A model generated the notes under the pieces. The model was not told the DNA's origin. It saw nothing but the letters and a program-made list of their open reading frames with translations, and did not search any database. Shown in pieces: positions 1,179 through 47,956 of a stretch of DNA of 64,000 nt. Location of the stretch: IMG/VR virus record IMGVR_UViG_3300028591_000171, positions 14,634-78,633 of that record, one strand, 5' to 3'. Position numbers and translations under genes: made by a program. Origin of the DNA: a virus. Lineage: Duplodnaviria; Caudoviricetes. The stretch's first letter is position 1, and each line of letters starts with the position of its first letter.

Positions 1179-1210
1179 TAGCCCCCTAATCGACTGAGTT
1201 AATTTAAATA
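1179..1210 (+). repeat. Copy 1 of a motif following receptor-binding genes (tagccccctaatcgactgagttaatttaaata)
   Basis: Near-identical to 47927-47956; begins 5 nt after the stop codon of the spike-like gene. Confidence 0.85.
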
Positions 1211-1220
1211 CGTTACTAAT

Positions 1221-1256
1221 AAAAACCCCTGTCAGATAAGTTCTGGCGGGGGTTTT
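1221..1256 (+). terminator. Intrinsic terminator, likely bidirectional
   Basis: aaaacccc-tgtcaga-taagt-tctggcg-ggggtttt hairpin with A and T tracts on either side. Confidence 0.75.
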
Positions 1257-1341
1257 AGCATTGTTGTCTTTCATCAGTCTGCCATGATAATTTCGTGTCA
1301 GAGTCGCGCGGCTCATGATGTGAAATTTAAAACTAAAAATT

Positions 1342-2250
1342 ATGGCAGATGTAACTTACATTCCTGATCAGAATCAGGCAAACAACATCCTACCTTGGAT
1401 GCTCGCCGGCAACAACGGGTTCGGCGGAATTGGAGGTAACGGTCTCGGCGGCGGAATCCTCGGATTCCTTCTCGGTCTTTTCTTCGGGAACGGTTGGGGA
1501 GGATTTGGTGGATTCGGCGGTTTCGGCGGAGGTAACGGAGCCGGGTTTATCTCTAACCAGATAGACAACAACGCCGGAAGAGAGCTTCTTATGAACGCCA
1601 TCAACTCCAACGGTGAGGCTTCCAGAGCCGCTATCCAGAATCTCGCGACAATGCTCGGGCAGGATTACAGCCAGGTCAGCTCGGCTGTCTCCGCTATCCA
1701 GAGCGGGTTGTCGTCGCTCGCTCTCCAGCAGGCGGTGTCTGTTCCCCAGCTGATCAACTCTATCCAGTCCGGTAACTCGACTCTCATGTCCAAGCTTTGT
1801 GACTGCTGCTGCGAGAACAGGCTTCTCACCACGCAGCAGGGTTACGAGTCACGGATAGCGACCATCGAGCAGACCAACCAGCTCGGATCCCAAGCTGACC
1901 GCAACACACGCTCAATCACTGACGCGATCAACGCCCAGACAGTCGCGATGAACGACCAGTTCTGCGCCGCGAAGGAGCGTGACCTCCAGCTGAAGATTGA
2001 CACGCAGTCTGACATCATCACCCAACTTCGTAACCAGATAAGCAACGATAAGCAGACTGAGGCTTTCACAGCCGCTTTTAACACCCTCAACCAGAAGATA
2101 ACCGAGTTGTCTGCGCGCCAGCCCAACACTGTCCCAGTCGTGTGGCCCAATCTCGCGGCTGTTAACACCACTCCTTATGTGAGCGGCGGTTATTACCAGG
2201 GTGGATTCAACGGCTACTATGGTGGCGGTGTTCCCGGTTTCTCATTCTAA
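1342..2250 (+). CDS. Gly-rich hydrophobic N-terminus + coiled-coil protein with CDCCC motif (unknown function)
   Basis: 302-aa ORF with phage-like codon usage: GG-rich hydrophobic segment (GGGILGFLLGLFFGNGWGG), long heptad-like helices, LCDCCCENRL, aromatic/Gly tail. Confidence 0.85.
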   Translation: MADVTYIPDQNQANNILPWMLAGNNGFGGIGGNGLGGGILGFLLGLFFGNGWGGFGGFGGFGGGNGAGFISNQIDNNAGRELLMNAINSNGEASRAAIQNLATMLGQDYSQVSSAVSAIQSGLSSLALQQAVSVPQLINSIQSGNSTLMSKLCDCCCENRLLTTQQGYESRIATIEQTNQLGSQADRNTRSITDAINAQTVAMNDQFCAAKERDLQLKIDTQSDIITQLRNQISNDKQTEAFTAAFNTLNQKITELSARQPNTVPVVWPNLAAVNTTPYVSGGYYQGGFNGYYGGGVPGFSF

Positions 2251-2261
2251 TACTCTGAGCC

Positions 2262-2606
2262 ATGTTCGGATTCAATGTAAATGTTACGACGAATGTCAAC
2301 GGCATACCGTTCATCACCACTAACGGTGTCACCGTGACGGCTGATTCCGTTGACTTCGCCTTGGGCTTCAGGAGGATTCCGAAGATCGGGAAGATAATCC
2401 TTAACGTCAATGACGCCATCCCTGACGGGACTACCGGCACTCTGCCTGTGAGGTTCACGCTAAATGGAAACACAAGGAACCTGACGTACTTCGGCGGGAC
2501 GAATGTGACCGCTGCTGACATAACCGGCACCGGCGTCATCGAGGCTTTGTTCAATTGGTTTGACGGGACGTTCCAGATCACGTCTGTTCTCGCTCCCGCG
2601 GCCTGA
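2262..2606 (+). CDS. Small beta-rich hypothetical protein
   Basis: 114-aa ORF rich in Thr/Val/Gly with alternating beta-strand patterns; starts 11 nt after the previous gene. Confidence 0.8.
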   Translation: MFGFNVNVTTNVNGIPFITTNGVTVTADSVDFALGFRRIPKIGKIILNVNDAIPDGTTGTLPVRFTLNGNTRNLTYFGGTNVTAADITGTGVIEALFNWFDGTFQITSVLAPAA

Positions 2607-2634
2607 TATGTTTGATTTAAAATAATTACAAGCG

Positions 2635-3153
2635 ATGTTTCAGGGATATAACCAGAGCCTGACACCTATAACACAAGGCTCAACCATGTACATATATGAC
2701 AGGAAGGCTTTCGGAGTCAAGACAGCCATGGTAAACTCCGTGTCACAACCCCACATCTCAAAGGCGGCGCAGGGCAATCCGGCGCTGGCGTTCCAGGGAT
2801 TCGTAGTTGACGTGTCACTCTCGGTTGACGGTGACACGAAGACTGTGGAGTTCCCGGTGAACAGCGTGTCCGCATCTTACGCCGAGCAGGGTTGGTTCAT
2901 GAGCTACGACAGCTCCGTGGTGACGCGCGAGATAGAATCGTCGATATCGGCGGCTAAACAGTTTCTCTCACAGGTTCCGCTCAACGAGCGTATCGTCAAG
3001 GATGGACCTGAGCTGATATCGCAGCTTAACCCGTCCAAAAGGATTGAGGAACAGAGCATGAGGGAAATAGCCGGTATACGTGAGGAGCTCGCCGAGTTCA
3101 AGAGGCTGCTCATGGGAATGTCGTCTGGCATCGCCAAAAAAGAGGAACAATAA
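2635..3153 (+). CDS. Hypothetical protein with C-terminal coiled coil
   Basis: 172-aa ORF in operon context. Confidence 0.8.
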   Translation: MFQGYNQSLTPITQGSTMYIYDRKAFGVKTAMVNSVSQPHISKAAQGNPALAFQGFVVDVSLSVDGDTKTVEFPVNSVSASYAEQGWFMSYDSSVVTREIESSISAAKQFLSQVPLNERIVKDGPELISQLNPSKRIEEQSMREIAGIREELAEFKRLLMGMSSGIAKKEEQ

Positions 3154-3154
3154 T

Positions 3155-3376
3155 ATGGCAGGATTAATCAGGATAATGGAGCGCGGTGGCGATGACTACC
3201 GCGATTACAAGTGGCACCTCAAGAACGCCAAGAAATCCATCGATGCTCTGTGCGAGCTCACAAAGGAGATGGAGGACGAGTACGGATACGGTGAGCGCGG
3301 CTATTCCGAGAGGGATTATGACCGTGACGAGATGTACGAGAGAGGCGGAAGACCCATGAGGAGACGCTCTATGTGA
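3155..3376 (+). CDS. Small charged protein with Arg/Gly/Tyr-rich tail
   Basis: ATG at 3155 lies 1 nt after the previous stop; MAGLIRIMERGG...GERGYSERDYDRDEMYERGGRPMRRRSM. Confidence 0.75.
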   Translation: MAGLIRIMERGGDDYRDYKWHLKNAKKSIDALCELTKEMEDEYGYGERGYSERDYDRDEMYERGGRPMRRRSM

Positions 3377-3381
3377 TGACA

Positions 3382-3402
3382 GGGGAGGGGCTTTCCCTCC
3401 CC
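3382..3402 (+). terminator. GC-rich hairpin, possible weak terminator or processing site inside the six-gene cluster
   Basis: ggggaggg-gcttt-ccctcccc followed by attattcgttttt (imperfect U tract). Confidence 0.45.
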
Positions 3403-3418
3403 ATTATTCGTTTTTGTT

Positions 3419-3823
3419 ATGGAAAGGATGGATTACTATGATATTTTACCGGCTGGCATGGAGGCTTATCTCGCCAGTCACGGGAGACATTTCTCCAAGC
3501 CGATGCTCGAGTGGGCTGTGTCCATGATGCGTGACAGGAGGGGTAACAAGGGAGTGGCCCTTGATCGGAAAAAATTTGACGAGCTCATGAAGGCGTATAA
3601 CATGACACTCGAGAGGAACGAGGGCTACTATGACGGACCTTATGTCTGGGCGATGGCCAAGAGTGATTATCTCGGGACTTCGATTGTTGACGAACAGAGG
3701 CTAGCGATGTTCGTGAAAGATTACATCGACGATGTTGACGGCAATCCCACGAGGGCTTTTGACGAGTTCTACATCAACTGTGTGGCTAAAGGTATTGACA
3801 TCCCCTGGCAGGATCTGATATGA
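3419..3823 (+). CDS. Conserved-looking hypothetical protein
   Basis: 134-aa ORF (YLASHGRHFSKPMLEWAVSMM...FDEFYINCVAKGIDIPWQDLI); overlaps the next gene by ATGA. Confidence 0.8.
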   Translation: MERMDYYDILPAGMEAYLASHGRHFSKPMLEWAVSMMRDRRGNKGVALDRKKFDELMKAYNMTLERNEGYYDGPYVWAMAKSDYLGTSIVDEQRLAMFVKDYIDDVDGNPTRAFDEFYINCVAKGIDIPWQDLI

Positions 3824-4221
3824 TACACAAGAAACTGAAGGTTGGCCACTGGGAGGTTGACTTCCTTTTCGCCGGCGAGAGGTATGACACCGATGAGGGG
3901 TTGGATTACCTCTATTACGCTGATGCCCCTGATTACGTCCTGCGTAAAGCGTATCATGTTATGGAGGATAACAAAACCGATACAGGGTTTGCCTACAGCA
4001 ACCCTGATTCCCGTATGGCTGTTGTTGTCGTCGGTCCGACATCATCAGGCGGAGAGTTCGTCAACACGCTTACACACGAGATCTATCATGTGGCTGTGGC
4101 CATAGCGGAAAGTATTGGTGTTGAGCTTGATAGCGAGACCCCGGCGTATATCAGCGGCGACACGTTGAAGTCTTTGTTCAGCGTCATCTGCGAGCTGGGT
4201 TGCCGCGAGTGTAATAAATAA
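3820..4221 (+). CDS. Hypothetical protein with HExxH (zinc metalloprotease-like) motif
   Basis: 133-aa ORF containing VNTLTHEIYHVA and a Cys-rich end (CELGCREC). Confidence 0.65.
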   Translation: MIHKKLKVGHWEVDFLFAGERYDTDEGLDYLYYADAPDYVLRKAYHVMEDNKTDTGFAYSNPDSRMAVVVVGPTSSGGEFVNTLTHEIYHVAVAIAESIGVELDSETPAYISGDTLKSLFSVICELGCRECNK

Positions 4222-4250
4222 GCGAACGGGTTACGATAACTAACTTTCTT

Positions 4251-4310
4251 AATTACCACCAAGCGAAACAGTTATGGTGGTAATTCGTCATGCCCTGACT
4301 TTTATTTTTG
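4251..4310 (+). promoter_or_regulatory. Perfect 10-bp inverted repeat followed by a Bacteroidota -7 promoter element upstream of the capsid operon
   Basis: aattaccacc (4251-4260) / ggtggtaatt (4276-4285) with a 15-nt spacer; TATTTTTG at 4303-4310, 21 nt before the ATG at 4332. Confidence 0.6.
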
Positions 4311-4331
4311 CCACGACAAAACAGGAGAAAA

Positions 4332-5456
4332 ATGGAAGATTTCACATTTGACATTAACAGCGGGTTATTGTCACCTGAGGAGGCTGAGAAGCTCTTCAGC
4401 GAGGTCCCCGAGGAGGAGGCTGACGGACAGCCCGAGGAAAAGATTACTGATAACCAAGCCGAGGAGCCTGAGGTTCCGGAGGAAGTAGGCGATGGGAATA
4501 ATGACGAGATTGAGGATGATGCCGCCAAGCCTGCGGGCGACGGTGCTTCTCCAGCCAGTTTTTATTCTTCCATAGCCGAAGCTTTGAAGGATGACGGCAT
4601 CTTCCCTGATTTCAACGATGACGAGATCAAGGCGGTGAAGACCCCCGAGGACTTCGCCGAGCTCTTTGAGAAGGCTGTGTCGGCAAGGTTTGACGAGAGG
4701 CAGAAACGGATTGACTCCGCGCTCGGAAACGGCGCTGATCCCGACAAGGTCAAGATGTTTGAGCAGACTATCGAGTACCTGTCATCCATCACTGACGAGG
4801 CTTTGAAAGCCGAGACTGACGAGGGAGAGGCGCTCAGGAAGCAGCTCATCTTCAACGACCTCCTCAACAAGGGTTACTCCGAGGAGAGGATAAAGAGGGA
4901 GATGGAGAAATCTTTCAAGTCAGGAAGTGATATTGATGACGCCAAGGACGCGCTGGCTGAGCTGAACAAGTTCTACAAGGGAGGATATGACAACCTTGTG
5001 AACGAGTCCAAGTCGAAGGCTGAGAACGCCAGGAAAGCGCGTGAGAGGGATGCCGCCGAGTTCAAGAAGATGATTCTTGACAACGATATCCAGCTCGGCG
5101 AGACGAAGCTTGACAAGCGCACGAGGCAGAGGATATTCGACGCCGTCTCCAAGCCTGTCTACAAGGACCCTGACACCGGTCAGCTTCTGACGCAGGTCCA
5201 GAAGTACCAGAAGGAGAACCCTCTCGAGTTCCTTAAGCAGCTTGGCATGTGGTACGTGCTGACTGACGGCGGAAAGAGTGTTGACGGGCTTGTGAAGAGC
5301 CAGGTCAGGACCGAGAGGAACAAGGGCATAAGGGAGCTTGAGAGGAAGATCAACTCCTCCGCCCTCGGCTCAGACGGCTCTCTCAGGTACATGTCGGGAA
5401 CCAATGTCGACAACGACTCGCTTCTCTCAGATGGCTGGCAGGTTGATCTCGGTTGA
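4332..5456 (+). CDS. Putative capsid scaffolding protein
   Basis: Very acidic N-terminus, helical body, directly upstream of the major capsid gene. Start moved to ATG 4332. Confidence 0.65.
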   Translation: MEDFTFDINSGLLSPEEAEKLFSEVPEEEADGQPEEKITDNQAEEPEVPEEVGDGNNDEIEDDAAKPAGDGASPASFYSSIAEALKDDGIFPDFNDDEIKAVKTPEDFAELFEKAVSARFDERQKRIDSALGNGADPDKVKMFEQTIEYLSSITDEALKAETDEGEALRKQLIFNDLLNKGYSEERIKREMEKSFKSGSDIDDAKDALAELNKFYKGGYDNLVNESKSKAENARKARERDAAEFKKMILDNDIQLGETKLDKRTRQRIFDAVSKPVYKDPDTGQLLTQVQKYQKENPLEFLKQLGMWYVLTDGGKSVDGLVKSQVRTERNKGIRELERKINSSALGSDGSLRYMSGTNVDNDSLLSDGWQVDLG

Positions 5457-5510
5457 CATACATGAATTTTGTTCCAACAAAACACTTTGTTTAACTAAAA
5501 AATTACAATT

Positions 5511-7043
5511 ATGCCAGGACGTTTAGTCAATTCACAGATGACTGGTGTCACCGCGTGGAGAGGAACTGTCACAAAGGACAACCACCTTTACAGCATGTTC
5601 CGCACTAACCCGCAGATGGCCAGTGATGTCATGACTGTCCTCATGAGCAGCATGCGTCTCCCCACCCTCGACAGCTACCTCTCCAAGGAGGTTCCCGTTC
5701 GCGAGTATGAGGACGACAGCGAGCTATTCTGGGACATCGTTACCTCCTCCAGGAGGAATATCCCCCTCGTAGAGGCGCGCCGTTGCGACGGCACCCCCAT
5801 CGAGGCCGCTAACGAGGACAATGTCGGTGTCGGTTTCGAGCCGTTCTACCTTGTCTTCCCCACTGATTGGTTCGCTCTCGGAGAGGTCCTCTGGGGCAAC
5901 ATGAACGAGGCCTATCCTGTTATCGTCAAGGAGGCTGGTCATGCCGAGGGAACCAACACCGTTTATCTTGTAGAGCCTTTCGGCGCGCATCTCGCCAACG
6001 GTATCCCCGCCGAGCGCCTTCTCCCCGGTGAGAAGTTCTCTTGGGGTTACGCTCCTATCGAGGACAACTTCTCCCGCAAGGTCGGTGACGTGCGTTTCAG
6101 CACTCCCGTCTCAATGCGCCAGGATTGGCAGAGGGTTCGTCTCCAGCACAAGATCGGTGGTCGCGAGCTTGGCAAGCGCCTCGCCTGTCATATCCCCGTC
6201 TCAAAGGAGGTCAACGGCAAGATGGTCCACACGACTGTCGACCGCTGGATCTACAACGTGACATGGAAGATCGAGGAGACATGGGCCGATTATAAGAACA
6301 ACGCCCTTGACCGTGGTGTCAGCACCCGTTTCGAGAACGGCGAGTATTCCAACTTCGGTCTCTCCGGTCTCGCCAACCGCCAGGGCTCCGGTTTCCGCCA
6401 GCAGATGGAGTCCGGTAACCAGATGTACTACACCAAGTTCACCATGGGTCTTGTCGAGGACGCCCTCTACGGGATCAGCGCAGGCAAGGTCGATTACGGT
6501 CAGCGCAAGTTCGTCATGAGGACTGGTGAGCGCGGAGCCATCCTGTTCAGCAGGGAGGCCAAGAAGGAGATGAGCGGATGGATTCCCATCTATAGCGTCA
6601 ACTCCCCGTCCTACATCACAAAGGGACCCGAGACCAACTTCACCAACGGCAACGCCGCCACCATCGCCGACCTTCAGGTCACCAAGTGGCTGGGAGCCAA
6701 CGGTCTCGAGCTCACCATCATGATCGATCCTTCCAAGGATGATATCCAGACCAACAAGGTCATGCACCCTCTGGGCGGAACCGCCGAGTCCTACAGGTTC
6801 GACATCTTCTATGCCGCCAACGAGGAGCAGCCCAATGTCCAGAAGTGTGTCGTCAAGGGTCAGCCCGAGCTTCGCGGCTACCAGTGGGGACCTTTCAGCA
6901 ACCCGTTCACCGGGGAGTTCAACAACAGCTCCGCCTCCTTCGACGAGGATGCCGCCGTCGTCCACTACAAGGCGACTCTCGGTCTGGTGATCTACGATCC
7001 TACCCGCTGTATCTCCCTTATCCCGGCGATCCTCCAGGCGTAG
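5511..7043 (+). CDS. Major capsid protein, crAss-like
   Basis: 510 aa with strongly biased codon usage. Segments (GEKFSWGYAPIEDNFSRKVG, RQGSGFRQQ, MRTGERG, NKVMHPLGGTAESYRFDI) resemble crAss-like capsid proteins as recalled; follows a scaffold. Confidence 0.88.
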   Translation: MPGRLVNSQMTGVTAWRGTVTKDNHLYSMFRTNPQMASDVMTVLMSSMRLPTLDSYLSKEVPVREYEDDSELFWDIVTSSRRNIPLVEARRCDGTPIEAANEDNVGVGFEPFYLVFPTDWFALGEVLWGNMNEAYPVIVKEAGHAEGTNTVYLVEPFGAHLANGIPAERLLPGEKFSWGYAPIEDNFSRKVGDVRFSTPVSMRQDWQRVRLQHKIGGRELGKRLACHIPVSKEVNGKMVHTTVDRWIYNVTWKIEETWADYKNNALDRGVSTRFENGEYSNFGLSGLANRQGSGFRQQMESGNQMYYTKFTMGLVEDALYGISAGKVDYGQRKFVMRTGERGAILFSREAKKEMSGWIPIYSVNSPSYITKGPETNFTNGNAATIADLQVTKWLGANGLELTIMIDPSKDDIQTNKVMHPLGGTAESYRFDIFYAANEEQPNVQKCVVKGQPELRGYQWGPFSNPFTGEFNNSSASFDEDAAVVHYKATLGLVIYDPTRCISLIPAILQA

Positions 7044-12812: not shown

Positions 12813-13547
12813 ATGATACAGACCACTAACATAAGGAGGATTCTCGACAGGGTGATGAGGCACCCGATGATGCGTGACATCCCGTTTGAGACAGCCGTGG
12901 AGTACACGGTTGATTTCATATCGCTCATGGGCACCCCAGCAATCTATGACGAGAAGACGGCTGTCGTCAAGGTCCATAACTGGAGAGGACAGCTGCCTTG
13001 CGATTTCGAGCAGATGATCCAGGTGAGGATGGCTGGCGGGCAGCATTCCAAGCGTTGGCTCAACTGCTGTAGGAGGACCGGGTTTGTCGGTCCAGTGTAC
13101 AGGGAGTCTGGGCACTCATTCCACATGTCTGACATCAAGCCCGAGTCTCTCAACACAGGTGAGCTCACCTACAAGATACAGGGGATGGTGATCTTCACGT
13201 CCACTAAGGATATCGATGTCGAGATAGCTTACAGGGCTTTCAGGGTTGATGACGAGGGTTATCCTGTCCTTCCTGACAACCCGAGTTTTCTCAGGGGACT
13301 GGAGAATTACATCAAGCTCCAGTGGTTCACCATCCTCTTCGACATGGGGAAGATATCAGCGCAGGTTCTCTCCAACACGCAGCAGGAGTACGCGTGGGCG
13401 GCTGGTGACGCGCAGAGCGAGTTCTCGAGACTCTCTCTCGACAAGGCCGAGACGTTGTTCAACTCGTTCAAGACACTCCTGCCGAGAAACCATGAGCACT
13501 GGAAGGCGTTCTTCACCAACGGGTCAAAGGAATTCTGGAGGCATTAG
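12813..13547 (+). CDS. Tail ring protein (putative, portal-proximal type)
   Basis: 244 aa; AVEYTVDFISLMG, WRGQLPCDF, QQEYAWAAG; immediately before the muzzle gene. Confidence 0.62.
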   Translation: MIQTTNIRRILDRVMRHPMMRDIPFETAVEYTVDFISLMGTPAIYDEKTAVVKVHNWRGQLPCDFEQMIQVRMAGGQHSKRWLNCCRRTGFVGPVYRESGHSFHMSDIKPESLNTGELTYKIQGMVIFTSTKDIDVEIAYRAFRVDDEGYPVLPDNPSFLRGLENYIKLQWFTILFDMGKISAQVLSNTQQEYAWAAGDAQSEFSRLSLDKAETLFNSFKTLLPRNHEHWKAFFTNGSKEFWRH

Positions 13548-13550
13548 TAT

Positions 13551-16500
13551 ATGAGGCAGAAAGCGGTCACACTTGTCAACAGGGGAATGAGCCGGGATAT
13601 GTCGGTCTCGAAGATCGACGGGTCGTCGGTGTATGAGAACCGTAACATCCGTATCACCGTCAGGGATAACGACACGATGCTCTCAGTCACCAACGAGAGG
13701 GGCAACAAGGAGTACAGCCTCAACGAGTCGATACATGGTGAGCTTCTCGGATGGAATGTCCTCAACAATCATGTCATCCTCTTCACGCACGAGGGTGATT
13801 CGACTGACAGGATATACAGGATAGATTATGAGAACGGTGGATTCACTAATCATTTACTTTATCCTACAAATAATGAGCAGGGTAGTCTCGGGTTCGATAT
13901 GGATCATCCGATTGAGTCTATCGTTTATCACGAGACCGAGGCCATCCAGAAGATATACTGGGTTGACGGCATACATCCTCTTCGGTTCATGAATTTCATG
14001 GCCACATCGGATGAGATGTCTGGTTGGCAGAATGACTCGTTTGACTCAAACATATCATCAGACTATTCTGTAGAGGTTGATATAACAAAGGATTATTCAG
14101 GCAATAACAGACCGAATGGTGTAATCCAGTATCTTATGACATACTATAACAAGCATGGTCAGGAAACTGGATATGTGTGGATGTCAGACCTTGTTTATTT
14201 GTCACCTAAGGATAATGGAGGCTCCGCTGACGGGACCAACACATGTAAGGTCACGTTCAGGATAAAGTTTGACGAGAATAACAGGTTCACAAATTTTAGG
14301 ATTTATTCCGTTTTCAGGAGCTCACTTAATATAGCGCAGGCGTCTTATATAGTCGCGGACGGCGAGATAGTTGATGATTATATTACCGTCGTGGATGACG
14401 GATATCATGTTGAGGCTCAGGATATAAGCAGGTTGCTTTATCTCGGTAGCCAGAACGTGAATCCAACAACCATAACACATAAGGATCAGACGATGTTCCT
14501 TGGTGGCCTTGAGACCACTGGGCAGAATTATGGTTGGCTGAAAGACCTGATATCGTTGTATCATATATATGACGAGGAGACCGGTCTTATCGATGAGATA
14601 TATCCTGGGACACATTGGGTAGAGTTCATGCTTGATGGCGGGATTCCATATCCGGACAATACAGGCGATTATTATTACGAGAGCCAGCTGTTGTACTCGT
14701 CGTCCGAGATATTGACATTCAAGGGTGGTGAGAAATACAGGTTCGCAATATCGCTCAAGACAAAGGACGGGGCCATGACTCCGGCGTTCTGGATAGGCGA
14801 TATGGTTAACAATCTGTATCCTGTAATTGACGAGAATAATCATGTCATACAGAGGGTAGTTGCCAGATTCGTCATTCCGAAAGACATGTATGACGAGATA
14901 GTCAACAGAGGATTCACCGCTGTCCAGCTTATGATGGCAGAGGCGACTTATGCTGACAGGTCTGTCAAGGCCCAGGGTATAGTCAACCCAACTATGTTCA
15001 ACGTGTGGGAGAGATATAACGACAGGTTATACTCTATGTCGTCATGGTTTTCAAGGCCAAGAGGAGAGGGTGTGGCCAGTGGTCATTTCAGCCCTGTGAA
15101 CAACTCTATATCATCAACCGGCGAGATACAGTGTAATTATTGGGACACGGAGAAAGTGCCAACCCCGTTCTATGAGGTTGTCGGCGGTCATATAGTTGAC
15201 GAGCTTGACGGCGTTTCTGATTATGATTTTCTGAAGATAATTTACAGTTATAAGCACGCCAAGAGCCATAGGGGTTCCAACAACGATGAGTTTTACATCA
15301 CTATGTTCATTATAAAGGCGTCTGGTACGGAGCCTTCCGACTCGTTCACATCGGCGGACCAGACCACTATGCTCGGCGCGTGGGATTGGACAAACCTCAG
15401 CGTCGCCGGAGCTGTAGGTATAAGGACAAGTGAGGCGAAGGGTAATTACAAGCAGGCGTATGCATGGATAGACAACACCCTTAACAATCTCGGTATAACG
15501 GACATCAATATGCGCCCGCTTGATTCCGAGATCAACAACTGGTATAACGCCGTAAGTGACAAGTCTTATCATTATCAGGCGCAGGGGAGTTCGCTGCAGA
15601 ACGTGACATTATTGCTTGACGCGCTCAATGATGCCGTATGGAACAGCTCAAATGGAGACCCTATAGCCTCCGCGAATAATTACACGCTGTCGCTGTATAA
15701 GAGGCATCTGATGTTTGTCGATGAGAATGTGGTCACGCTTGATTCGCCAGAACTCTCTTATGAGGCGGTAAGCATCGACATACCGGATAACGACGCTTAT
15801 TACAAATTCAGGATAGTTGGTGTCGCGAAGATAACAGGTGGATACAGCGATTATACAGTGGAGGCAACTCACGCGCACCTGTCAGGAGAGAATCTTATCA
15901 AGACCCCGTTCTCATCGAGCGGTGAAAAACGCGACAGGGGATGTCTTGTTACATGGCCTTTATGGAAAGAGAATGGGTTGGTTAAAGATAATACAGGTAA
16001 TCCGCCTCCGCCTGATAAGGATGTGGAGGACAGGACTCCTGATTATTATGTGTACACGTCCAACATAAACAAGTATTGGTTGTACCCGTGGAATCATTCG
16101 GGCAAGATAGACGCTTTCACAAAGAAGGATATCGGCGATTTCTCGACGTTGAAATCCAAGACATTCGCCACATTGAGATTCTCTGGATACACGAGGTACA
16201 ATTCCAATCAGTATTTTGAGGATTATATCCCTCAATCAATAAGGATGTTCAACTCGACAGGAAGCCAGTATACCGGTATAAATGTCAGTGATGACAAGAA
16301 GTATTATGACGGCTCTCCAAATATGTCGTTATCGCTGGCTGGAAAACACAAATATCCGGTATTGTTCTCAACAGGCTCTGTGGAGTCCGATGATATATTG
16401 ACGGCGAATCCTCAGACAGATGCGCATTTGTTTATAAACGACCCTGTGCAGATAACGTTCATGAGCAATCCTCACGCGGTGTTGTCTCTTCCGTCATATA

Positions 16501-18305
16501 TCGATCAGACAGACAATAAATACACGCAGGAGATATTGCCGTATATATTCGACAATGACTCTGTTGTTATTGGCGGATATGCGAAGATACCATGGAACGA
16601 TGAGTGGTATAAGGTTGAGCAGAGGCAAATGCACAACCCGTTCTCAATATATGACACAGAGTCGTTGAGTGAGAATGACAGGTATCTGATGATCGGTGAG
16701 ATTTACTACGATTATAATGAGACCGGCGCCGTCGACAACAGATATGGCGGCGTGTCCGATTTCGCCGTTGAAAACAACAGGTTTATTCCAGCAGGTCCAA
16801 TGCTCAGATTGTCGGAGCTTGATGAGTTTAAGGTGACTCCTTCTCCAGGAACGACAATACTATTCGGATATAAGGTTCCTGGTGACAGTGGTGACACATA
16901 CTTCCAGAGATGGGATTGCATGAGGACAAGACCTTATGGTGACGGTGATGAGAACAATGTCATTGATGTAGTCTCTGTTATGCTTGAGACTCATGTGAAC
17001 ATAGACGGAAGGACTGACAACTATCGCGGGACAAAGTATCTGGCGTCTGTTGACCCTGAGAAGTTCGGCAATATTAATCCGGTATATTCGCAACAGGATA
17101 ACTTCTTCTCCAGCCGTCATCTTGATGAGGACTTTGACCAGGACACATACCGCTCGTCAATTACATGGACTCTCGACAAGACAGACTCCGCCGATATAGA
17201 CGAGTGGACTCATATCACTCTGGCCAACTCGCTGAAGCTTGACGGCGACAAGGGTGCGTGCCAGGCGTTGAGGAGATTCAACAACACCATCATAGCTTTT
17301 CAGGACAGAGCCATATCAGAGATACTGTTCAACTCAAGGACTCAGCTATCAACCACAAGCGGTGTCCCTGTCGAGATAGCCAACTCAGGTAAGGTTGACG
17401 GTAAGAGATATATAACCAACAAGTACGGCTGCGTCAACAAGTGGTCCATCATAGAAGGGAAAGCAGCCCTGTATTTCGTCGACAATATCAACAAGGCGTT
17501 CTGCGCTTTCGGCGGACAGGGGATACAGCCACTCTCTACCAAGCTCGGATTTGACGCGTGGTTCAGGAGAATCAACAGTGTCAAGCCTTGGGCTCCGGAT
17601 GCTACGTTCAACAATATTGTGGCCTATTACGACAGGATACATTCTGACGTGTATCTTATCGGCACTGGCGAGGCTTACGGTGACATACCTTGTCTCGTGT
17701 ACAATGAGACTCTCGGAGTGTTCACCAGCTTCTACGATTACTCTAAGGTTCCGATGATGGCCAACGTAGAGGACAGGTTTGTCTCTGTGCGTGACCACAA
17801 GCTCTGGCTCCAGAACGAGGGGATGTACTGCAACTTCTTCGGCACCGATTACGGGTACAGTGTCGAGTATAGGGCGACTCCTGACCCGTATGGTGACAAG
17901 ATATGGACCAATGTGGATTACAGGGCTGATTATTACAGGCTTCTTGACAATAACGCCGACAGTGTCGTGCCTGAGCGTCTGATGATAAACGGTGAGTATT
18001 ACGATGACATCGCCGGGACATATCAGGACGACAAGACCTTTGACTCGTTGAGGATATGGAATGAGTACCAGAACACCGGCGAGGTTGCTCTTGGTATGGA
18101 TTACACGACAGACAAGACCACTAGGCGCAAGTTCCGTATCTGGCACGTGGCGATTCCAAGGTCAGTCAAGACTGAGAGGAACAAGTGGGGTCTCGACAGG
18201 ATTCGCAATCCTTGGATAAGCTTGCTTTTCAAGAAGAACGCCAATTCAGACAACAGAAAGGACATGGCGCAGATACATGATGTGACCGTAAGATATTTCG
18301 AATAG
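13551..18305 (+). CDS. Tail muzzle / stabilisation protein
   Basis: 1584 aa; N-terminal GMSRDMSVSK...YENRNIRI and KIYWVDG; C-terminal NSGKVDGKRYITNKYG, YFVDN, RRKFRIW, RIRNPW motifs typical of this family. Confidence 0.8.
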   Translation: MRQKAVTLVNRGMSRDMSVSKIDGSSVYENRNIRITVRDNDTMLSVTNERGNKEYSLNESIHGELLGWNVLNNHVILFTHEGDSTDRIYRIDYENGGFTNHLLYPTNNEQGSLGFDMDHPIESIVYHETEAIQKIYWVDGIHPLRFMNFMATSDEMSGWQNDSFDSNISSDYSVEVDITKDYSGNNRPNGVIQYLMTYYNKHGQETGYVWMSDLVYLSPKDNGGSADGTNTCKVTFRIKFDENNRFTNFRIYSVFRSSLNIAQASYIVADGEIVDDYITVVDDGYHVEAQDISRLLYLGSQNVNPTTITHKDQTMFLGGLETTGQNYGWLKDLISLYHIYDEETGLIDEIYPGTHWVEFMLDGGIPYPDNTGDYYYESQLLYSSSEILTFKGGEKYRFAISLKTKDGAMTPAFWIGDMVNNLYPVIDENNHVIQRVVARFVIPKDMYDEIVNRGFTAVQLMMAEATYADRSVKAQGIVNPTMFNVWERYNDRLYSMSSWFSRPRGEGVASGHFSPVNNSISSTGEIQCNYWDTEKVPTPFYEVVGGHIVDELDGVSDYDFLKIIYSYKHAKSHRGSNNDEFYITMFIIKASGTEPSDSFTSADQTTMLGAWDWTNLSVAGAVGIRTSEAKGNYKQAYAWIDNTLNNLGITDINMRPLDSEINNWYNAVSDKSYHYQAQGSSLQNVTLLLDALNDAVWNSSNGDPIASANNYTLSLYKRHLMFVDENVVTLDSPELSYEAVSIDIPDNDAYYKFRIVGVAKITGGYSDYTVEATHAHLSGENLIKTPFSSSGEKRDRGCLVTWPLWKENGLVKDNTGNPPPPDKDVEDRTPDYYVYTSNINKYWLYPWNHSGKIDAFTKKDIGDFSTLKSKTFATLRFSGYTRYNSNQYFEDYIPQSIRMFNSTGSQYTGINVSDDKKYYDGSPNMSLSLAGKHKYPVLFSTGSVESDDILTANPQTDAHLFINDPVQITFMSNPHAVLSLPSYIDQTDNKYTQEILPYIFDNDSVVIGGYAKIPWNDEWYKVEQRQMHNPFSIYDTESLSENDRYLMIGEIYYDYNETGAVDNRYGGVSDFAVENNRFIPAGPMLRLSELDEFKVTPSPGTTILFGYKVPGDSGDTYFQRWDCMRTRPYGDGDENNVIDVVSVMLETHVNIDGRTDNYRGTKYLASVDPEKFGNINPVYSQQDNFFSSRHLDEDFDQDTYRSSITWTLDKTDSADIDEWTHITLANSLKLDGDKGACQALRRFNNTIIAFQDRAISEILFNSRTQLSTTSGVPVEIANSGKVDGKRYITNKYGCVNKWSIIEGKAALYFVDNINKAFCAFGGQGIQPLSTKLGFDAWFRRINSVKPWAPDATFNNIVAYYDRIHSDVYLIGTGEAYGDIPCLVYNETLGVFTSFYDYSKVPMMANVEDRFVSVRDHKLWLQNEGMYCNFFGTDYGYSVEYRATPDPYGDKIWTNVDYRADYYRLLDNNADSVVPERLMINGEYYDDIAGTYQDDKTFDSLRIWNEYQNTGEVALGMDYTTDKTTRRKFRIWHVAIPRSVKTERNKWGLDRIRNPWISLLFKKNANSDNRKDMAQIHDVTVRYFE

Positions 18306-42850: not shown

Positions 42851-42853
42851 TCA

Positions 42854-42909: not shown

Positions 42910-42926
42910 TGTCAAATCATATCGAT

Positions 42927-43247: not shown

Positions 43248-43342
43248 CCAAACGGAGTAACAAAATCAATTACATGAGATAAGCTTATCGCTTTCTCATG
43301 TTTTTTTATTTGTGTTCCTGTATAATTTTGTCTAAAAAGAAC

Positions 43343-43741
43343 ATGGATATGAATTTTGAAGCAATAATGGGCTATGTCGTCACGGGTATCGGAGGACTGC
43401 TCGGTGGCGGAGGCATAATGGCTCTTTTCAATTGGAAAGAGAATAAGGGCAAGGCAAAGGAAGAGGTCAAGTCTGACGCGCTTGAGAATATAAGGAAGGA
43501 GGTTGAGGTATATCAGACAATAATTGCCGACCAGAACAAGAGGATCGCAGAATTGACACAAGAGGTCGATGCTTTGAGGAAGGAGAAACGGGAGGCTGAG
43601 ATCGAACATCAGCGTCAAATCAGCAATCTCCAGAAACAGATTGTCGAGATCACAAAGGCTCTTGGAATCAAGGCTAATGAGCGTATACGCGACGAGAAAA
43701 CAGGCAGGTTCATAAAGGGTGAGAAATGTATCTCGTTCTGA
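43343..43741 (+). CDS. N-terminal TM + coiled-coil protein (holin-like), C-terminal RDxxGRF motif
   Basis: IMGYVVTGIGGLLGGGGIMALF then heptads; TAATTTTG promoter element at 43323-43330. Confidence 0.55.
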   Translation: MDMNFEAIMGYVVTGIGGLLGGGGIMALFNWKENKGKAKEEVKSDALENIRKEVEVYQTIIADQNKRIAELTQEVDALRKEKREAEIEHQRQISNLQKQIVEITKALGIKANERIRDEKTGRFIKGEKCISF

Positions 43742-44208
43742 CAAGGATATACAAGTGTGACCAGTACACGATAGGTCGCCTGTATCTTGAGAAGAACGGG
43801 CAGATGACCTACCTGTGCGACACTCTCGAGGATCGTGACAGGGGACTTAAGCTCAAGTGGCCTTTGTCCCAGATTTTGGCTGTCAAGGTTCCTGGCGAGA
43901 CGGCTTTGCCTCTTGGCTCATATAAGATAATAAAAACCATATCACCGAAATTCAAATACCGTGTTTGGGGCAAGAAATATGGCGGATATGTACCGGAGAT
44001 AACACCAGTATCAGGTTATTCGGGATTCTCTGCGACCCGTCTACATCCAGCGAACCGGGCCTCTGAGATCGAGGGTTGTGTTGCTATTGGGAAGAACACG
44101 ATAAAGGGTCAGGTGACACAGTCCCAGAAGACATACTACGACATCATGGACAAGTACATAGTCCCAGCATGGGACAATGGTGAGCCAATCTACCTCACTA
44201 TAAAATGA
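43726..44208 (+). CDS. Putative endolysin (DUF5675-like, L,D-peptidase-like His/Cys motif)
   Basis: CDTLEDRDRGL, KVPGETALPLGSY, LHPANRASEIEGCVAIG; sits between membrane protein genes. Confidence 0.6.
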   Translation: MYLVLTRIYKCDQYTIGRLYLEKNGQMTYLCDTLEDRDRGLKLKWPLSQILAVKVPGETALPLGSYKIIKTISPKFKYRVWGKKYGGYVPEITPVSGYSGFSATRLHPANRASEIEGCVAIGKNTIKGQVTQSQKTYYDIMDKYIVPAWDNGEPIYLTIK

Positions 44209-44543
44209 TAGTTCTTAAGAGCAGTATATTCCCCTTGGGCAAGTTCTCCGCGATCAATCTCTTCGGTATCGTGATACTCAAGAAGAAATCTGTCGAGAGG
44301 AAATCAGTGCAGTCAATCATCAGGCTTTTGAGGCACGAGGCGATACACACGGAGCAGATGAAAGAGCTGTTGTTCATCGGATTCTATATCATTTATGTTC
44401 TCGAGTGGTTATACAGGCTCGTCTTCCACACGAAAACAGCTTACAAAGGATTGTCATTTGAGGTTGAGGCGATATCCAATCAGGGAACTTTAGGTTATCT
44501 CACAAGCAGGAGACATTTCGCGCAATGGAGAAGAAAAGTCTGA
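44205..44543 (+). CDS. Small HExxH protein common in Bacteroidales phage lysis regions
   Basis: AINLFG, LLRHEAIHTEQMKELLFIGFY, SFEVEA. Confidence 0.55.
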   Translation: MIVLKSSIFPLGKFSAINLFGIVILKKKSVERKSVQSIIRLLRHEAIHTEQMKELLFIGFYIIYVLEWLYRLVFHTKTAYKGLSFEVEAISNQGTLGYLTSRRHFAQWRRKV

Positions 44544-45046
44544 TACTTGGCTCTGTCCTGACCATCGTCTGTCTGGCTCTTGTTTTCTCGCTCGGTTTCA
44601 TCACCGGCAATTCATTTGCGCCTGAGCCGGAGATAATAACAAAGCGTGACACGACAACCATATTCGTTCCTGTAGAGGTTGAGAAGCCCGTGCCCAAGTA
44701 TATAACAAAGTACAAGACTGACACGATTGAGTTCCGTTACACGGAGATAAGGCATGACACAGTGAAAGCTCTTGTTCCGATGGAGAGACGTGTTTATGCT
44801 GAGGACTCATTGTATCGGGCTGTCGTCACAGGTTATAACCCTGTGCTTGAATCGCTCACAATCTATCCGACAATAACGACAATCACCATACATGACAAGG
44901 TAAAGACTCAGGCTCCGAGATTCTCATTCGGAGTCACTTTAGGGCCGTCAATGTTGGTCACGCCGTCTGGTGACGTGCACGCTGGAGCCGGTGTCACTGT
45001 GGGATTGCAATACAGGTTTAGGATATGGCAGAGAAGAGAAGACTGA
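44525..45046 (+). CDS. Spanin-like protein (N-terminal TM, beta-rich C-terminus)
   Basis: SLILGSVLTIVCLALVFSLGF, Thr-rich DTTTI/DTI repeats, and a C-terminal FSFGVTLGP...GVTVGLQYRF outer-membrane-like strands. Confidence 0.5.
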   Translation: MEKKSLILGSVLTIVCLALVFSLGFITGNSFAPEPEIITKRDTTTIFVPVEVEKPVPKYITKYKTDTIEFRYTEIRHDTVKALVPMERRVYAEDSLYRAVVTGYNPVLESLTIYPTITTITIHDKVKTQAPRFSFGVTLGPSMLVTPSGDVHAGAGVTVGLQYRFRIWQRRED

Positions 45047-45171
45047 CAATCAAATCACTGTTCGATAGGATAGTTGACAGACCTAAGCCTTCGGCTCCGA
45101 GAGCCGGGTTCAAGGCGAGCGGATCAAGGTATGACAAGGGCGGAAAGCTTAAAGGGAAAAAGACCGTATAG
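45025..45171 (+). CDS. 48-aa basic peptide with YDKGGKLK motif (not in the ORF track)
   Basis: Manual translation MAEKRRLTIKSLFDRIVDRPKPSAPRAGFKASGSRYDKGGKLKGKKTV; overlaps both neighbours. Confidence 0.45.
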   Translation: MAEKRRLTIKSLFDRIVDRPKPSAPRAGFKASGSRYDKGGKLKGKKTV

Positions 45172-45523
45172 GCTGATGCTGGTGACGCTGAAGGTGATAC
45201 CGATGCTTTTGGCGTTATCGGCTATGACCGGCATGTTCCTGGATTTTCTCGGGATTGACAGTTCCGTGCTCTCTTTTGTCGGAGGTGTGTCGTTGTTCCC
45301 GCTGCTTTTCCTTTATCTGGCCTCTTATGTTTTTTGTTTCTGCGAGTATCACAGGATGTTCCTCCATTATGTCGTGGCGAACAACCTGCTGACATATGCG
45401 GATTATTATATAGGAATCCCGATAAACGACAGGAGCCTTTTCATGGTCCATATCATTCTTATCGGGATATTCCTTTTCCTCGTGTTGTATTTCTATAGGA
45501 CTGAGAGATGTTGCGGACAATAA
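45131..45523 (+). CDS. Multi-TM membrane protein
   Basis: Start moved to ATG 45131; four hydrophobic segments; YLASYVFCFCEYHRMFLHY. Confidence 0.7.
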   Translation: MTRAESLKGKRPYRLMLVTLKVIPMLLALSAMTGMFLDFLGIDSSVLSFVGGVSLFPLLFLYLASYVFCFCEYHRMFLHYVVANNLLTYADYYIGIPINDRSLFMVHIILIGIFLFLVLYFYRTERCCGQ

Positions 45524-45801
45524 GGAGACTGCTTCTCGATATTGTCGACGACATAGACGCCGGCAACTCCAACATGAGCGAGGATGAGGAGATGGAGCTT
45601 ATCCGTGTCCTTAAGGAACTCTCCAGGAAGGACAGGCCCATGAGCAAGTATCAGGCTTACACCTATCTCAATGTCAGCAGGGCGACCTTTGACAATATGA
45701 TAAGGGACGGAAGGTTGCCCAAAGGAAAGAAGGTCGCCGGCTTCAAGGAGCTGATGTGGTTCGAGAAAGACTTGAAGGATATCGCCGGTAAGAGCAAGTG
45801 A
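45508..45801 (+). CDS. AlpA/excisionase-like HTH DNA-binding protein
   Basis: MSKYQAYTYLNVSRATFDNMIRDGRLPKG...WFEKDL matches the MerR/Xis-type winged HTH pattern. Confidence 0.6.
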   Translation: MLRTIRRLLLDIVDDIDAGNSNMSEDEEMELIRVLKELSRKDRPMSKYQAYTYLNVSRATFDNMIRDGRLPKGKKVAGFKELMWFEKDLKDIAGKSK

Positions 45802-45883
45802 TTGTGTCTCCCGGTGTAACTGAATCGCTTACAAGTGTGATATGAGTTCTGATTTTACATACTTTTACCCAAAATATATTGTT

Positions 45884-47929
45884 ATGGCAGGTATTGTTCA
45901 ATTGAAAGACGAGAGCGGGAATTCTGTATATCCTGTGACAGGAGCTAATCTTGTAGATGGTTTGTCTGATGTCGCCAAGAGCGGTGATTATAATGACTTG
46001 GAGAATAAACCGACTATACAGACGATTAACACTGTTAATGTGTCTGTTGACAATAATACTGGGACCCCGTCTGCTACTGGTACTGTATCGGGTTCTACGA
46101 TCACACTTAATTTCCATAATCTAAAAGGACAGCAAGGGCAACAGGGTCAGCAGGGAAATACCGGATCGTCAGTGGACTATCCCTATGAACTTGTGAACAA
46201 CCTCATCACCGATGACGCCACGAAAGGTTTGTCAGCCGCGCAGGGTGTGGTGCTGGAGGGCGAAGTCAGTCAGTTACGCTCCGAGTTGGATGGGAATGAA
46301 CTTATCGCAAAAACATCCTTTATCGGCGGGTGGTATATTTATAAGACAAACCCATATTACAAGACAAACAATACGGCCCGCGTGGGCGTGGGGGAAATAA
46401 CACTTGATGCCGGCGATATAATTTCCCTTACCGATTATTCAGCTTGTAGGATGTATGTCGGATATAGGGATGCGAATGGCTATAACACACCCGGTGCTTG
46501 GTTGACCTCTGATTATACCGCTCCGGTCTCCGGAATATATGTAATAACACTTGACGGCATCCCCGCGGTACCCGTGTCTGACACATCGGATTTGACTAAA
46601 TATCTCCGGGTTATTCGAGGCTTATCACAAGTATATCGTAACGAGGTCACTCTCAATGAGCTGGAATCAGATGTCGCAAGAAAATCCACAAATAATGACT
46701 TGTCAAATCAACTTTATTGCGAGAGTCTGACACAAGGCGTTGAGTATGAGCTGGGAAATATCCTTATCACGAACTCCGCTTGGACGTATGAGGATTCCGT
46801 CAATCGGGTGCGTACACCATCAGACTATATTCTCCACTTGTTCCCAGGTGACAAAATCACTCTATCAAATTACTCCGGCGTGAGGTTCTATGTCGGCGCG
46901 AGGTATGTTTCCGGGAGTATGTCAATGGCTGGATGGCTGACGAGTGACTACATTGTGCAGGAGGAGGGGTATTTCTGCGTTCTTGTGGCGAACACGACGG
47001 ACACGCAACAGTTATCCCCGGATACACTCGGACAACTGATTAAAGTTGTTAGGAATACCACCGTGCGGTCAATGATCGGGAGTGGCGCGGCATCGGTGAT
47101 ATTCAACAATACCGGGACAACGCAAGTCATAGGGAATCGGATTGATTTGGTGGGGCAAAATTACTCCGTGGCATACATCGGACAAGAGGGGGCGGGTGTA
47201 GACACAAGGCAAGGTGGCGCAATATTCGGTGATTACCTTTTCCAATTCCATAACACTCTCGAATCCATTGTTGTGTTCAAATTGTCTACGGCTACAACCG
47301 TGCAGACGTTTTCCTTGACAGCCCAGCCAGATTGTCATGCCAATTCCGGCGGTTTCGGAAAAACTTACCATACGGCGGGTGATCCTTTCCCGCTTTTGTA
47401 TGTGTCATCGCAGTCGGAAAAAAAGATATATGTTTACAGGATCACAGGCGAGGAGGGTAATTGGTCAATCGCATTAGTTCAAACTATCACGGTTAATGTG
47501 GATTTCTATCTCCCGAATATTGCCATAGACGCATGGAATGAACGTGGAGTCCTATTTGGCTATACAAAAAATTCCTGGTCTGACACGACCGCGAAATCCC
47601 GTATATGTTGGTTTAATCTGCCGCCACTATCCTCTGGGGATGTGACGATTTCCGACTTCAATGATTATTTCACACTTCCATACATATACGCACAACAGGG
47701 AGCATGTGCGAGATTTGGCAAGATGTACCTGTCCTTCGGCAATACGCAACAAGGGCAGGCGACTGGTGGTATTATAGTGATAGACTACACGAATAAGAAT
47801 GTCGATAGTTATCTTGACCTATATGCCATCGCTCCAGGATCGTTTGAGCCGGAGGCAATCGGTATTTGGGGCGGGGGACTAATCGTGACATCGGCAGGTG
47901 GAGGAGTATATAAATTGACAGTCAATTAG
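45884..47929 (+). CDS. Receptor-binding / tail fibre protein with duplicated internal module and C-terminal beta-propeller-like domain
   Basis: Fibre-type N-terminus (SGDYNDLENKP, GQQGQQGQQG, ELVNNLITDDATKGLSAAQGVVL), two WLTSDY modules, and QGGAIFGDYLFQF / EPEAIG propeller-like blades. Confidence 0.7.
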   Translation: MAGIVQLKDESGNSVYPVTGANLVDGLSDVAKSGDYNDLENKPTIQTINTVNVSVDNNTGTPSATGTVSGSTITLNFHNLKGQQGQQGQQGNTGSSVDYPYELVNNLITDDATKGLSAAQGVVLEGEVSQLRSELDGNELIAKTSFIGGWYIYKTNPYYKTNNTARVGVGEITLDAGDIISLTDYSACRMYVGYRDANGYNTPGAWLTSDYTAPVSGIYVITLDGIPAVPVSDTSDLTKYLRVIRGLSQVYRNEVTLNELESDVARKSTNNDLSNQLYCESLTQGVEYELGNILITNSAWTYEDSVNRVRTPSDYILHLFPGDKITLSNYSGVRFYVGARYVSGSMSMAGWLTSDYIVQEEGYFCVLVANTTDTQQLSPDTLGQLIKVVRNTTVRSMIGSGAASVIFNNTGTTQVIGNRIDLVGQNYSVAYIGQEGAGVDTRQGGAIFGDYLFQFHNTLESIVVFKLSTATTVQTFSLTAQPDCHANSGGFGKTYHTAGDPFPLLYVSSQSEKKIYVYRITGEEGNWSIALVQTITVNVDFYLPNIAIDAWNERGVLFGYTKNSWSDTTAKSRICWFNLPPLSSGDVTISDFNDYFTLPYIYAQQGACARFGKMYLSFGNTQQGQATGGIIVIDYTNKNVDSYLDLYAIAPGSFEPEAIGIWGGGLIVTSAGGGVYKLTVN

Positions 47930-47956
47930 CCCCCTAACTGACTGAGTTATTAAATA
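47927..47956 (+). repeat. Copy 2 of the motif following receptor-binding genes (tagccccctaactgactgagttattaaata)
   Basis: Starts at the TAG stop codon of the fibre gene; near-identical to 1179-1210. Confidence 0.85.

Follow-up and report, generated by a model that had tools for sequence, protein, structure and literature searches.

The 64,000-nucleotide stretch analyzed here (the window) comprises bases 14634-78633 of a 78.6-kb IMG/VR viral record (IMGVR_UViG_3300028591_000171), which is classed as linear and ~80% complete and derives from a crAss-like phage of a sheep gut metagenome. Two tail-fibre genes of this phage, fibre A and fibre B, end at copies of one short sequence, the 3' junction motif or outer site, and both contain a reverse-complement copy of it, the inner site, in their coding sequence. 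The motif is probably a portable gene junction that doubles as a crossover or linker site for modular exchange among rumen and gut Bacteroidales phages. Comparison of the genomes that carry it identifies the inner and outer sites as the two ends of an exchangeable cassette, and forward copies as the boundaries of small mobile cassettes.

The junction motif and its distribution

When the window was searched with the 23-nt pattern, allowing up to 3 mismatches, matches were confined to positions 1179-1201 (2 mismatches) and 47927-47949 (0 mismatches), and 100 dinucleotide shuffles gave 0 matches. These are the two copies, 46.7 kb apart, that a preliminary description of this DNA had reported; no additional copy was found across the whole 78.6-kb record. 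The likeness between them spans ~37 nt (1174-1210 versus 47922-47956). Copy 1 begins 1-5 nt past the TAA stop of fibre A (1171-1173), the 23-nt match starting 5 nt past that stop; at copy 2 the 23-nt motif opens with the TAG that terminates fibre B. As had been claimed, the C-terminal parts of the two fibres are unrelated on comparison. The inverted repeat TAACT-GACTG-AGTTA, also described earlier, is indeed present in copy 2; it is broken in copy 1 and gives no stable fold (z = -0.6). A local hairpin of copy 2 was rejected, its fold being unstable and not conserved.

A relaxed core pattern matched 39 stretches when viral contigs were scanned with it; ~29 distinct true instances have flanks conserved well beyond the pattern and give the consensus ACTTTCGGCCCTAATTGACTGACTTA. 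The motif thus proved to be a conserved family located just past fibre and spike genes in many viral contigs, and not a sequence of this one genome or of random genes. The window's copies represent a variant of the family, AGCCCCCTAA..GACTGAGTTA, which also occurs in L004, in tandem with the consensus type. With the sequence model R1, every one of 30 records (4-94 kb) proved to have between 1 and 9 copies; several of these records are complete and have terminal repeats. A position weight matrix (PWM) applied to 14 genomes totalling 790 kb scored 53 sites at 15 bits or more, as compared with 0 in shuffled genomes. The motif is spread across phage lineages, given that the capsid protein of this phage has a homologue in just one (the 94-kb G014) of the 23 other records. 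A scan of bacterial genomes recovered the complete hallmark from just two contigs, both belonging to a ruminal Candidatus Cryptobacteroides metagenome-assembled genome; the remaining matches of that scan resemble chance. None of the papers found describes the motif, and its sole occurrences in them are synthetic three-frame stop linkers.

A reverse-complement copy inside the fibre genes

Fibres A and B share a PF22337 fibre repeat, and 23 of 35 residues around LSA.QG..LEGEVSQLRSE are identical between them; fibre A therefore carries the same N-terminal anchor that the preliminary description had noted in fibre B. The DNA of this anchor is itself a reverse-complement copy of the 3' motif, a point absent from that description. 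In fibre B, positions 46262-46285 encode EVSQLRSE in frame, and an 11-nt core of the inner site recurs in copy 2 without mismatch but inverted; an N-terminal part extends to residue ~148 and is followed by the variable C-terminal cassette. The full-length fibre A (823 aa, record 13335-15806) begins 1,298 nt ahead of the window. The inner site of this gene is located outside the window (record 13854-13879), has the same 23-nt sequence (13854-13878) and encodes the same EVSQLRSE; the inner and outer sites of this fibre are alike at just 10 of 13 core positions. Across the family the inner copy usually encodes E-V/L-S-Q-L-E-A-E; in phages of the consensus type, read on the motif strand (e.g. ATTTCGGCCTCTAATTGACTGAGTTC), it matches the 3' motif over ~22 of 26 nt. 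An inner copy, in frame and antisense, is present in fibre ORFs (open reading frames) of 10 of the 14 genomes.

The codon choice of the inner site is fixed, with TTA for Leu (12/12 cases), AGT for Ser (9/10), GAG for Glu (8/8) and GCC for Ala (8/8). Two of these codons are scarce in the motif-bearing genomes, TTA accounting for 4.5% of Leu codons and AGT for 9.7% of Ser codons. Several synonymous codons are used for the conserved residues that flank the site. Conservation of the inner site is thus at the DNA level. The site is also kept in three fibres in which the preceding peptide is unrelated.

The overall architecture was assessed in a sample selected by the inner site alone, consisting of 73 distinct sites in metagenome contigs; a number of these contigs coincide with records of the viral contig set, which makes the sample independent by selection and not by data. 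A co-oriented 3' motif was found downstream in 46 of the 50 decidable fibres, in 20 of them within 12 nt of the stop, and motif density was 0.280/kb downstream of the inner site compared with 0.010/kb upstream, a 28-fold difference. Inner and outer sites are moreover matched by subtype: LEAE occurs with CGGCCC (9/9) and LGQE with AACCCC (3/3), and both fibres of the present phage combine LRSE with AGCCCCC. From this pairing, the inner halves of both sites appear to travel with the cassette.

Two inverted sites within one transcript could also pair as RNA. In such a scheme the 3' motif would bind the inner site 1.6-2.7 kb upstream and either mask the next start until the fibre had been translated or create an RNase III site. 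Translation-dependent masking of a start has a precedent in the coat-replicase interaction of MS2; the motif abuts the start codon of the next ORF. Most pairs have predicted duplex energies between -19 and -31 kcal/mol, and in 6 of 9 cases no other part of the ORF pairs better than the inner site. In phages of the consensus type, pairing is energetically feasible. The pairs of the window, however, are predicted to be no better than other windows of the same ORF (-12.6 versus -19.3 and -21.2 versus -21.5 kcal/mol), there is no covariation at the variable position (CAA/CAG versus T/C; exact complement in 6/12, or 10/12 with G-U, about the level of chance), and many copies have no inner partner nearby. 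Long-range pairing is thus a very improbable account of the two sites.

Homology breaks at the sites and shared cassettes

Among 66 inner sites we found 36 pairs that are at least 90% identical over the 180 nt before the site, and 35 of these 36 are unrelated over the 180 nt after it. The identity profile of 39 such pairs runs at 0.7-1.0 upstream, where third codon positions vary, stays at 1.00 throughout the site, and falls to ~0.25-0.3 from +24 to +30 onwards, which places the break at the edge of the site. In the pair L008/L035 the identity starts exactly at the motif; L010/L024 is a further example of a breakpoint pair. Ends of high-scoring segment pairs are enriched 4.5-fold near the sites. 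Contigs with the same N-terminal flank therefore carry alternative, unrelated C-terminal parts, and the receptor-binding C-termini of related phages are not invariant.

Small cassettes provide corresponding evidence for the forward copies. A 185-nt cassette common to G016 and G020 (98.9% identical) and a 478-nt cassette common to G020 and G023 (97% identical) both have a motif copy at each end and occupy different array positions in the two genomes concerned, which belong to otherwise unrelated phages.

The cassette of fibre B itself was found in other surroundings. X2, a 4,655-nt contig from a 2025 food-production metagenome, is 98% identical to the window over 46262-47951 only, with both flanks different, and X3, a 9,414-nt contig from a 2021 gut metagenome, is 93% identical over 46268-47938, again with other flanks. 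Both are contigs from Logan. A repeat of 26 nt cannot produce mis-joins at k=31, but wider linkage in such contigs needs care. An apparent joint from 46282 to 47929 in X3 was disregarded because it rests on 20 letters. The bounds 46262/46268 and 47951/47938, which coincide with the inner site and the 3' motif, agree with the earlier proposal that a fixed 3' crossover point and a conserved N-terminal anchor permit cassette exchange. Searches of viral contigs with the window's cassettes yielded one relative (50%) of the fibre B cassette and no relative of the fibre A cassette; a metagenome contig search with the fibre B cassette found none, and the N-terminus of fibre B gave weak matches only.

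A hybrid arrangement was observed in the metagenome contig JAEEGL010829106.1 (L186:8339-8430). A normal 3' motif is followed, 20 nt on, by an inverted hybrid site, whose outer half comes from a 3' motif and whose inner half comes from the inner site of a fibre, and then by the first 15 codons of a cassette (VSQLEAKVDELRIDA, then stop). The arrangement looks like the scar of a recombination between oppositely oriented sites.

If the inner site recombined with the 3' motif of the same gene, the cassette would be flipped and the fibre truncated, giving an ON/OFF switch. This possibility draws on the inverted repeats, with their perfect 11-nt core in fibre B, on a virtual inversion that closes the frame 2-3 codons past the site (EVSQLGG-stop), and on the single hybrid-type site in a metagenome contig. 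It is hardly credible nonetheless: no contig contains an inverted cassette, and hybrid junction patterns gave 0 matches in viral contigs; the L186 hybrid, found at 1 of 74 metagenome sites, is no inverted cassette but a 15-codon remnant that lies 20 nt away from a normal 3' motif; no invertase is conserved across the genomes; the fibre A pair agrees at just 10/13 core positions; and forward arrays, together with copies that lack an inner partner, are left unexplained. Switching between alternative C-termini in the manner of phage Mu was rejected, virtual inversion yielding short, random-looking extensions that are mostly <60 aa and measure 3 and 10 aa in the window. Also rejected were a diversity-generating retroelement (RVT_1 in 0/14 genomes; no long pair of template and variable repeats at fibre 3' ends) and a serine invertase (resolvase/invertase domain in 1/14 genomes).

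The motif as a probable gene junction

Many forward copies sit 0-18 nt past the stop of long ORFs (480-1180 aa). These ORFs contain PF22337 fibre repeats, collagen repeats, a tail-tip domain or C-terminal GDSL/esterase domains, and because of these domains we take them to encode receptor-binding or receptor-modifying proteins. Other copies form arrays that run in the same direction, with a spacing of 150-500 nt, between very small ORFs. Such arrays are usually located downstream of a fibre gene, often a few kb from an integrase; in L044 and L047 they are far from any fibre gene. The ORFs that follow array copies are varied and include holin-like membrane proteins, a lipoprotein and small Cys-rich proteins.

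The core of the motif, TAAnTGAnTGA, provides one stop per reading frame (TAA, TGA and TGA), and all three are in use. At 42 forward-oriented, non-fibre sites, upstream ORFs stop at the TAA within the motif (4), at the first TGA (5) or at the second TGA (6), or else just before the core, and in 16 of the 42 an ATG at +25, which overlaps the last base of the motif, opens the next ORF. The motif RNA is predicted to be unstructured, and a strong hairpin often follows directly. One is found after copy 1 and several other copies, the same hairpin being present in L010, L023, L024 and L059; copy 2 and most array copies have none. A simple terminator scan did not call the hairpin after copy 1 (1222-1256).

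These properties could mean that the motif is primarily an expression signal (for termination-reinitiation coupling, as a processing site, or as a promoter or terminator unit) and that mosaic boundaries are a by-product, the motif being the sole homology at which unrelated genomes recombine, as has been proposed for the promoter-early stem-loop cassettes (PeSLs) of T4-like phages. Strict co-orientation with the flanking genes, the fixed distance to the ATG, the use of all three stops, unstructured RNA with a strong hairpin often just after it, and arrays remote from fibre genes are all in keeping with such a role. Neither copy in the window, on the other hand, has a sigma-70-type promoter match or, by eye, the Bacteroidetes -33/-7 pattern (TTTG/TAnnTTTG); no Rfam family matches the motif; directly behind copy 1 there is only a terminator-like hairpin and no ORF; and the invariant rare codons of the intragenic reverse-complement copy are unexplained. 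We consider expression as the primary function rather unlikely. A regulatory or RNA-processing site had been offered in the preliminary description as an alternative to a crossover point; an expression role may coexist with one in recombination because the motif punctuates small-gene arrays, but by itself it cannot account for the intragenic copy.

How modules may be exchanged

A motif that is both junction and crossover linker would act as follows. In forward orientation it would close any preceding ORF through its stops in three frames and set the start of the next by the ATG on its last base, and therefore any two modules joined at the motif would be correctly expressed. An ORF cannot contain the motif in forward orientation, a possible reason why fibre genes carry its reverse complement; this inner copy lies where the constant N-terminal part gives way to the variable receptor-binding part. 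Co-resident phages or prophages that recombined at both short sites would replace the whole C-terminal cassette, whereas recombination between forward copies would move small accessory-gene cassettes. We infer that crossovers fall within the sites and that exchange is driven by homology, for which general recombination functions of phage or host would suffice.

An all-against-all comparison of 947 ORFs from the 14 genomes revealed that only fibres are present in every genome, and a universal phage-encoded factor was rejected on these grounds. Tyrosine integrases occur in 10 of the 14 genomes and are diverse (25-56% mutual identity), and a serine recombinase occurs in one; G011, G012 and G021 have neither. 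Since no recombinase or other non-fibre family is common to all 14, we favour general or host functions. Five ORFs of G010 (L111-L114), a motif-bearing genome that also holds the only serine recombinase of the set, show an N-terminal W.D..G..G.Y.VS..GR signature typical of NUMOD4/HNH-type homing endonucleases.

Several observations weigh against homology-driven exchange at a junction linker. It leaves unexplained both the inverted-repeat likeness of inner and outer sites (up to 22-26 nt) and the strict conservation of the 26-nt sequence across unrelated phages, and 26 nt is short for RecA-type recombination. For 7 of the 16 long ORFs terminated by a 3' motif, no inner copy was detected, and all of the evidence is comparative and comes from metagenome contigs. 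Because homology alone does not explain the inverted likeness and the strict conservation, a sequence-specific factor may be involved.

Site-specific exchange, in which a ~15-nt core (CTAAYTGACTGA.TT) would be targeted by a recombinase or nuclease that is host-encoded or supplied in trans, is rather unlikely to be correct. Its inverted sites would permit exchange or inversion but never deletion, a logic known from recombinase-mediated cassette exchange and from the pdif modules of Acinetobacter, and forward arrays would be integron-like. It would account for inner and outer sites that are inverted copies of one sequence, for an inner site conserved at every codon position, for breakpoints inside the motif or at its edges, and for arrays that all run in one direction, with identical small cassettes at different array positions in G016 and G020. 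All complete genomes with at least 3 copies encode a tyrosine recombinase, often 1-4 kb from the array, and in the one hybrid site (L186) the inner half derives from an inner site and the outer half from a 3' motif. No recombinase family is common to all genomes, however, and with integrases only 25-56% identical to each other a shared 26-bp target is unlikely. By inspection, the paired inverted arms of lox, dif or att core sites are absent. Hybrid junctions number 0 as compared with 14 normal inner sites in viral contigs, and 1 as compared with 73 in metagenome contigs. An extended form of this idea, a system for phage host range with no recombinase of its own, in which a ~15-26-nt site read by a host or trans-supplied factor would direct integron-like exchange of inverted-site receptor-binding cassettes and direct-site accessory cassettes among unrelated Bacteroidales phages, seems unlikely.

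The two fibre loci and their neighbours

The features of the two loci are listed in Table 1.

Table 1. Positions of the junction motif, fibre genes and adjacent features in the window (ORF, open reading frame; PWM, position weight matrix).
Feature	Position	Strand	Description
Fibre gene A, 3' 390 codons	1..1173	+	ORF; PF22337 and phage tail tip domain matches
3' junction motif copy 1	1174..1210	+	26-nt core window 1176-1201; R1 model 25.7 bits, E = 1e-6; PWM 30.1 bits
15-bp hairpin then T-run, terminator-like	1222..1256	+	Directly 3' of copy 1; fold -25 kcal/mol, z = -3.2
Gly-rich 302-aa ORF, first gene past copy 1	1342..2250 (record 15975-16883)	+	phrog_16490
Fibre gene B, 695 aa	45842..47929	+	ORF; PF22337 at residues 118-144
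Inner site of fibre B	46262..46287	-	Reverse-complement junction motif; PWM 15.2 bits on opposite strand; 5' cassette boundary
3' junction motif copy 2	47922..47956	+	26-nt core window 47924-47949; R1 model 28.5 bits; PWM 32.9 bits; 3' cassette boundary
76-aa ORF	47959..48189	+	ATG 2 nt past extended copy 2; no family match

The family of the Gly-rich 302-aa protein downstream of fibre A is present in G000, G009, G010, G014 and G020. Its homologues sit after the fibre/motif region in four other motif-bearing phages, whose capsids are unrelated save that of G014, and the protein may be a lysis or membrane protein that moves along with the fibre module.

In the closest relative, G014 (L077-L081, 47.4-58.9 kb, compared with G000), which is 94 kb long with terminal repeats, the capsid is 84% identical and the gene order differs. 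Its fibre cluster closes with two motif copies. Homologues of fibre B's upstream neighbour and of fibre A's downstream neighbour adjoin there, and a fibre B homologue is absent at that locus. The rearrangements lie near motif-adjacent genes and are too complex to be ascribed to the motif.

Fibre B apparently lies within a lysogeny module. An HTH_17/excisionase-like ORF (45508-45801) is located immediately upstream, and a NinB-like ORF (48192-48668, opposite strand; a weak match, E = 1e-3, below the Pfam cut-off) just downstream, with homologues in four other motif-bearing phages. A 63-nt stretch at 48949-49013 is tRNA-like (33 bits to the Rfam tRNA family) and is separated by 150 nt from a tyrosine integrase (49157-50434) with Arm-binding, SAM-like and catalytic domains. 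The core of this stretch, 48949-48998, reaches enormous depth in four metagenomes, with many differing sequences on either side, which fits an attachment (att) core common to bacterial tRNA genes. In the source sample, a 5-kb contig identical to the window begins inside the tRNA-like core, at 48969; integrated and free forms of the phage may possibly both have been present.

Further downstream, a 20-nt sequence occurs in three copies (51997-52016, 52130-52149 and 53999-54018), two of them identical. The minus strand reads AAAGGAGGAAAAGAAATGAA, a strong Shine-Dalgarno-like box with a start codon. Shine-Dalgarno boxes are little used in Bacteroidales, and such a box is unusual for a Bacteroidales phage.

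Significance

Fibre tips set the host range of gut and rumen phages, and to our knowledge the exchange of tips among Bacteroidales phages, crAss-like phages included, is poorly understood. The element described here would supply exact, conserved nucleotide addresses for both ends of an exchangeable module, in use across unrelated backbones. Module boundaries thereby become predictable from sequence alone, which should improve the annotation of receptor-binding parts in viromes, and the sites offer natural splice points for laboratory fibre swaps in model Bacteroides phages. They also raise the question of whether a 26-nt linker is kept only through the benefit of recombination or is read by some factor.

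Comparison with known systems

In the invertible tail-fibre segments of Mu (G/Gin), P1 (C/Cin) and p15B (Min) and in the R64 shufflon, inverted repeats bracket a variable C-terminal part. The present fibres resemble them in having the left repeat in frame at the border of constant and variable parts and inverted repeats around the C-terminal segment. They differ in that no alternative C-terminus on the opposite strand, no conserved invertase and, in the assembled contigs, no inverted state was found; diversity appears to arise between genomes and not by switching within one.

Integrons combine an IntI-type integrase and its attI site with hairpin-forming attC sites of 57-141 bp. The likeness here is confined to the layout of same-direction arrays, and membership was rejected because the motif is 26 nt long and unstructured and no integrase is common to all genomes.

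A close parallel may be drawn with tailspikes of Escherichia coli phages, in which conserved DNA motifs flank the receptor-binding domain, are shared across genera and have been proposed as recombination hotspots (Virol J 2023, PMC10408124). Both systems have a conserved N-terminal anchor with an exchangeable tip, and short conserved stretches on both sides of the variable part. In the present system, by contrast, each flank is the reverse complement of the other, and the one on the 3' side is a defined intergenic unit of 26 nt that supplies stops in three frames as well as a start codon. This unit also divides small-gene arrays, and the hosts are rumen and gut Bacteroidales.

The PeSLs of T4-type phages are repeats that bound insertions, deletions and replacements, and mini-circles have been demonstrated for them (PMC2839356, PMC4122927). 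They share with the junction motif a repeated intergenic sequence in variable regions at the bounds of such changes and a possible dual role in expression and shuffling. A stem-loop belongs to PeSLs; in the present phages a hairpin follows copy 1 and several other copies, but neither copy 2 nor most array copies. Unlike the copies in the window, PeSLs have a recognizable sigma-70 promoter, and they have no in-frame inverted copy in a structural gene and no stop or start codons.

The pdif modules of Acinetobacter are bounded by 28-bp XerC/XerD sites with two arms and a 6-bp spacer (PMC6449649, PMC13141974). As in the present phages, short inversely oriented sites delimit modules that are shuffled between replicons, and the pdif modules encode no recombinase; the junction consensus, by inspection, lacks the paired arms at 6-8 bp spacing that characterize Xer-dif sites.

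In polymorphic toxins such as CdiA and Rhs, a conserved demarcating motif precedes a swappable C-terminus that is exchanged by recombination (PMC3482391). There too, a short conserved peptide separates the constant part from exchangeable C-terminal cassettes, although the protein class and the biology are different and no matching inverted 3' copy or gene-junction function is known for these toxins. Taken together, the present system differs from those known in its inverted-copy flanks, its three-frame stop and start, its cassette arrays and its spread over unrelated Bacteroidales phage backbones.

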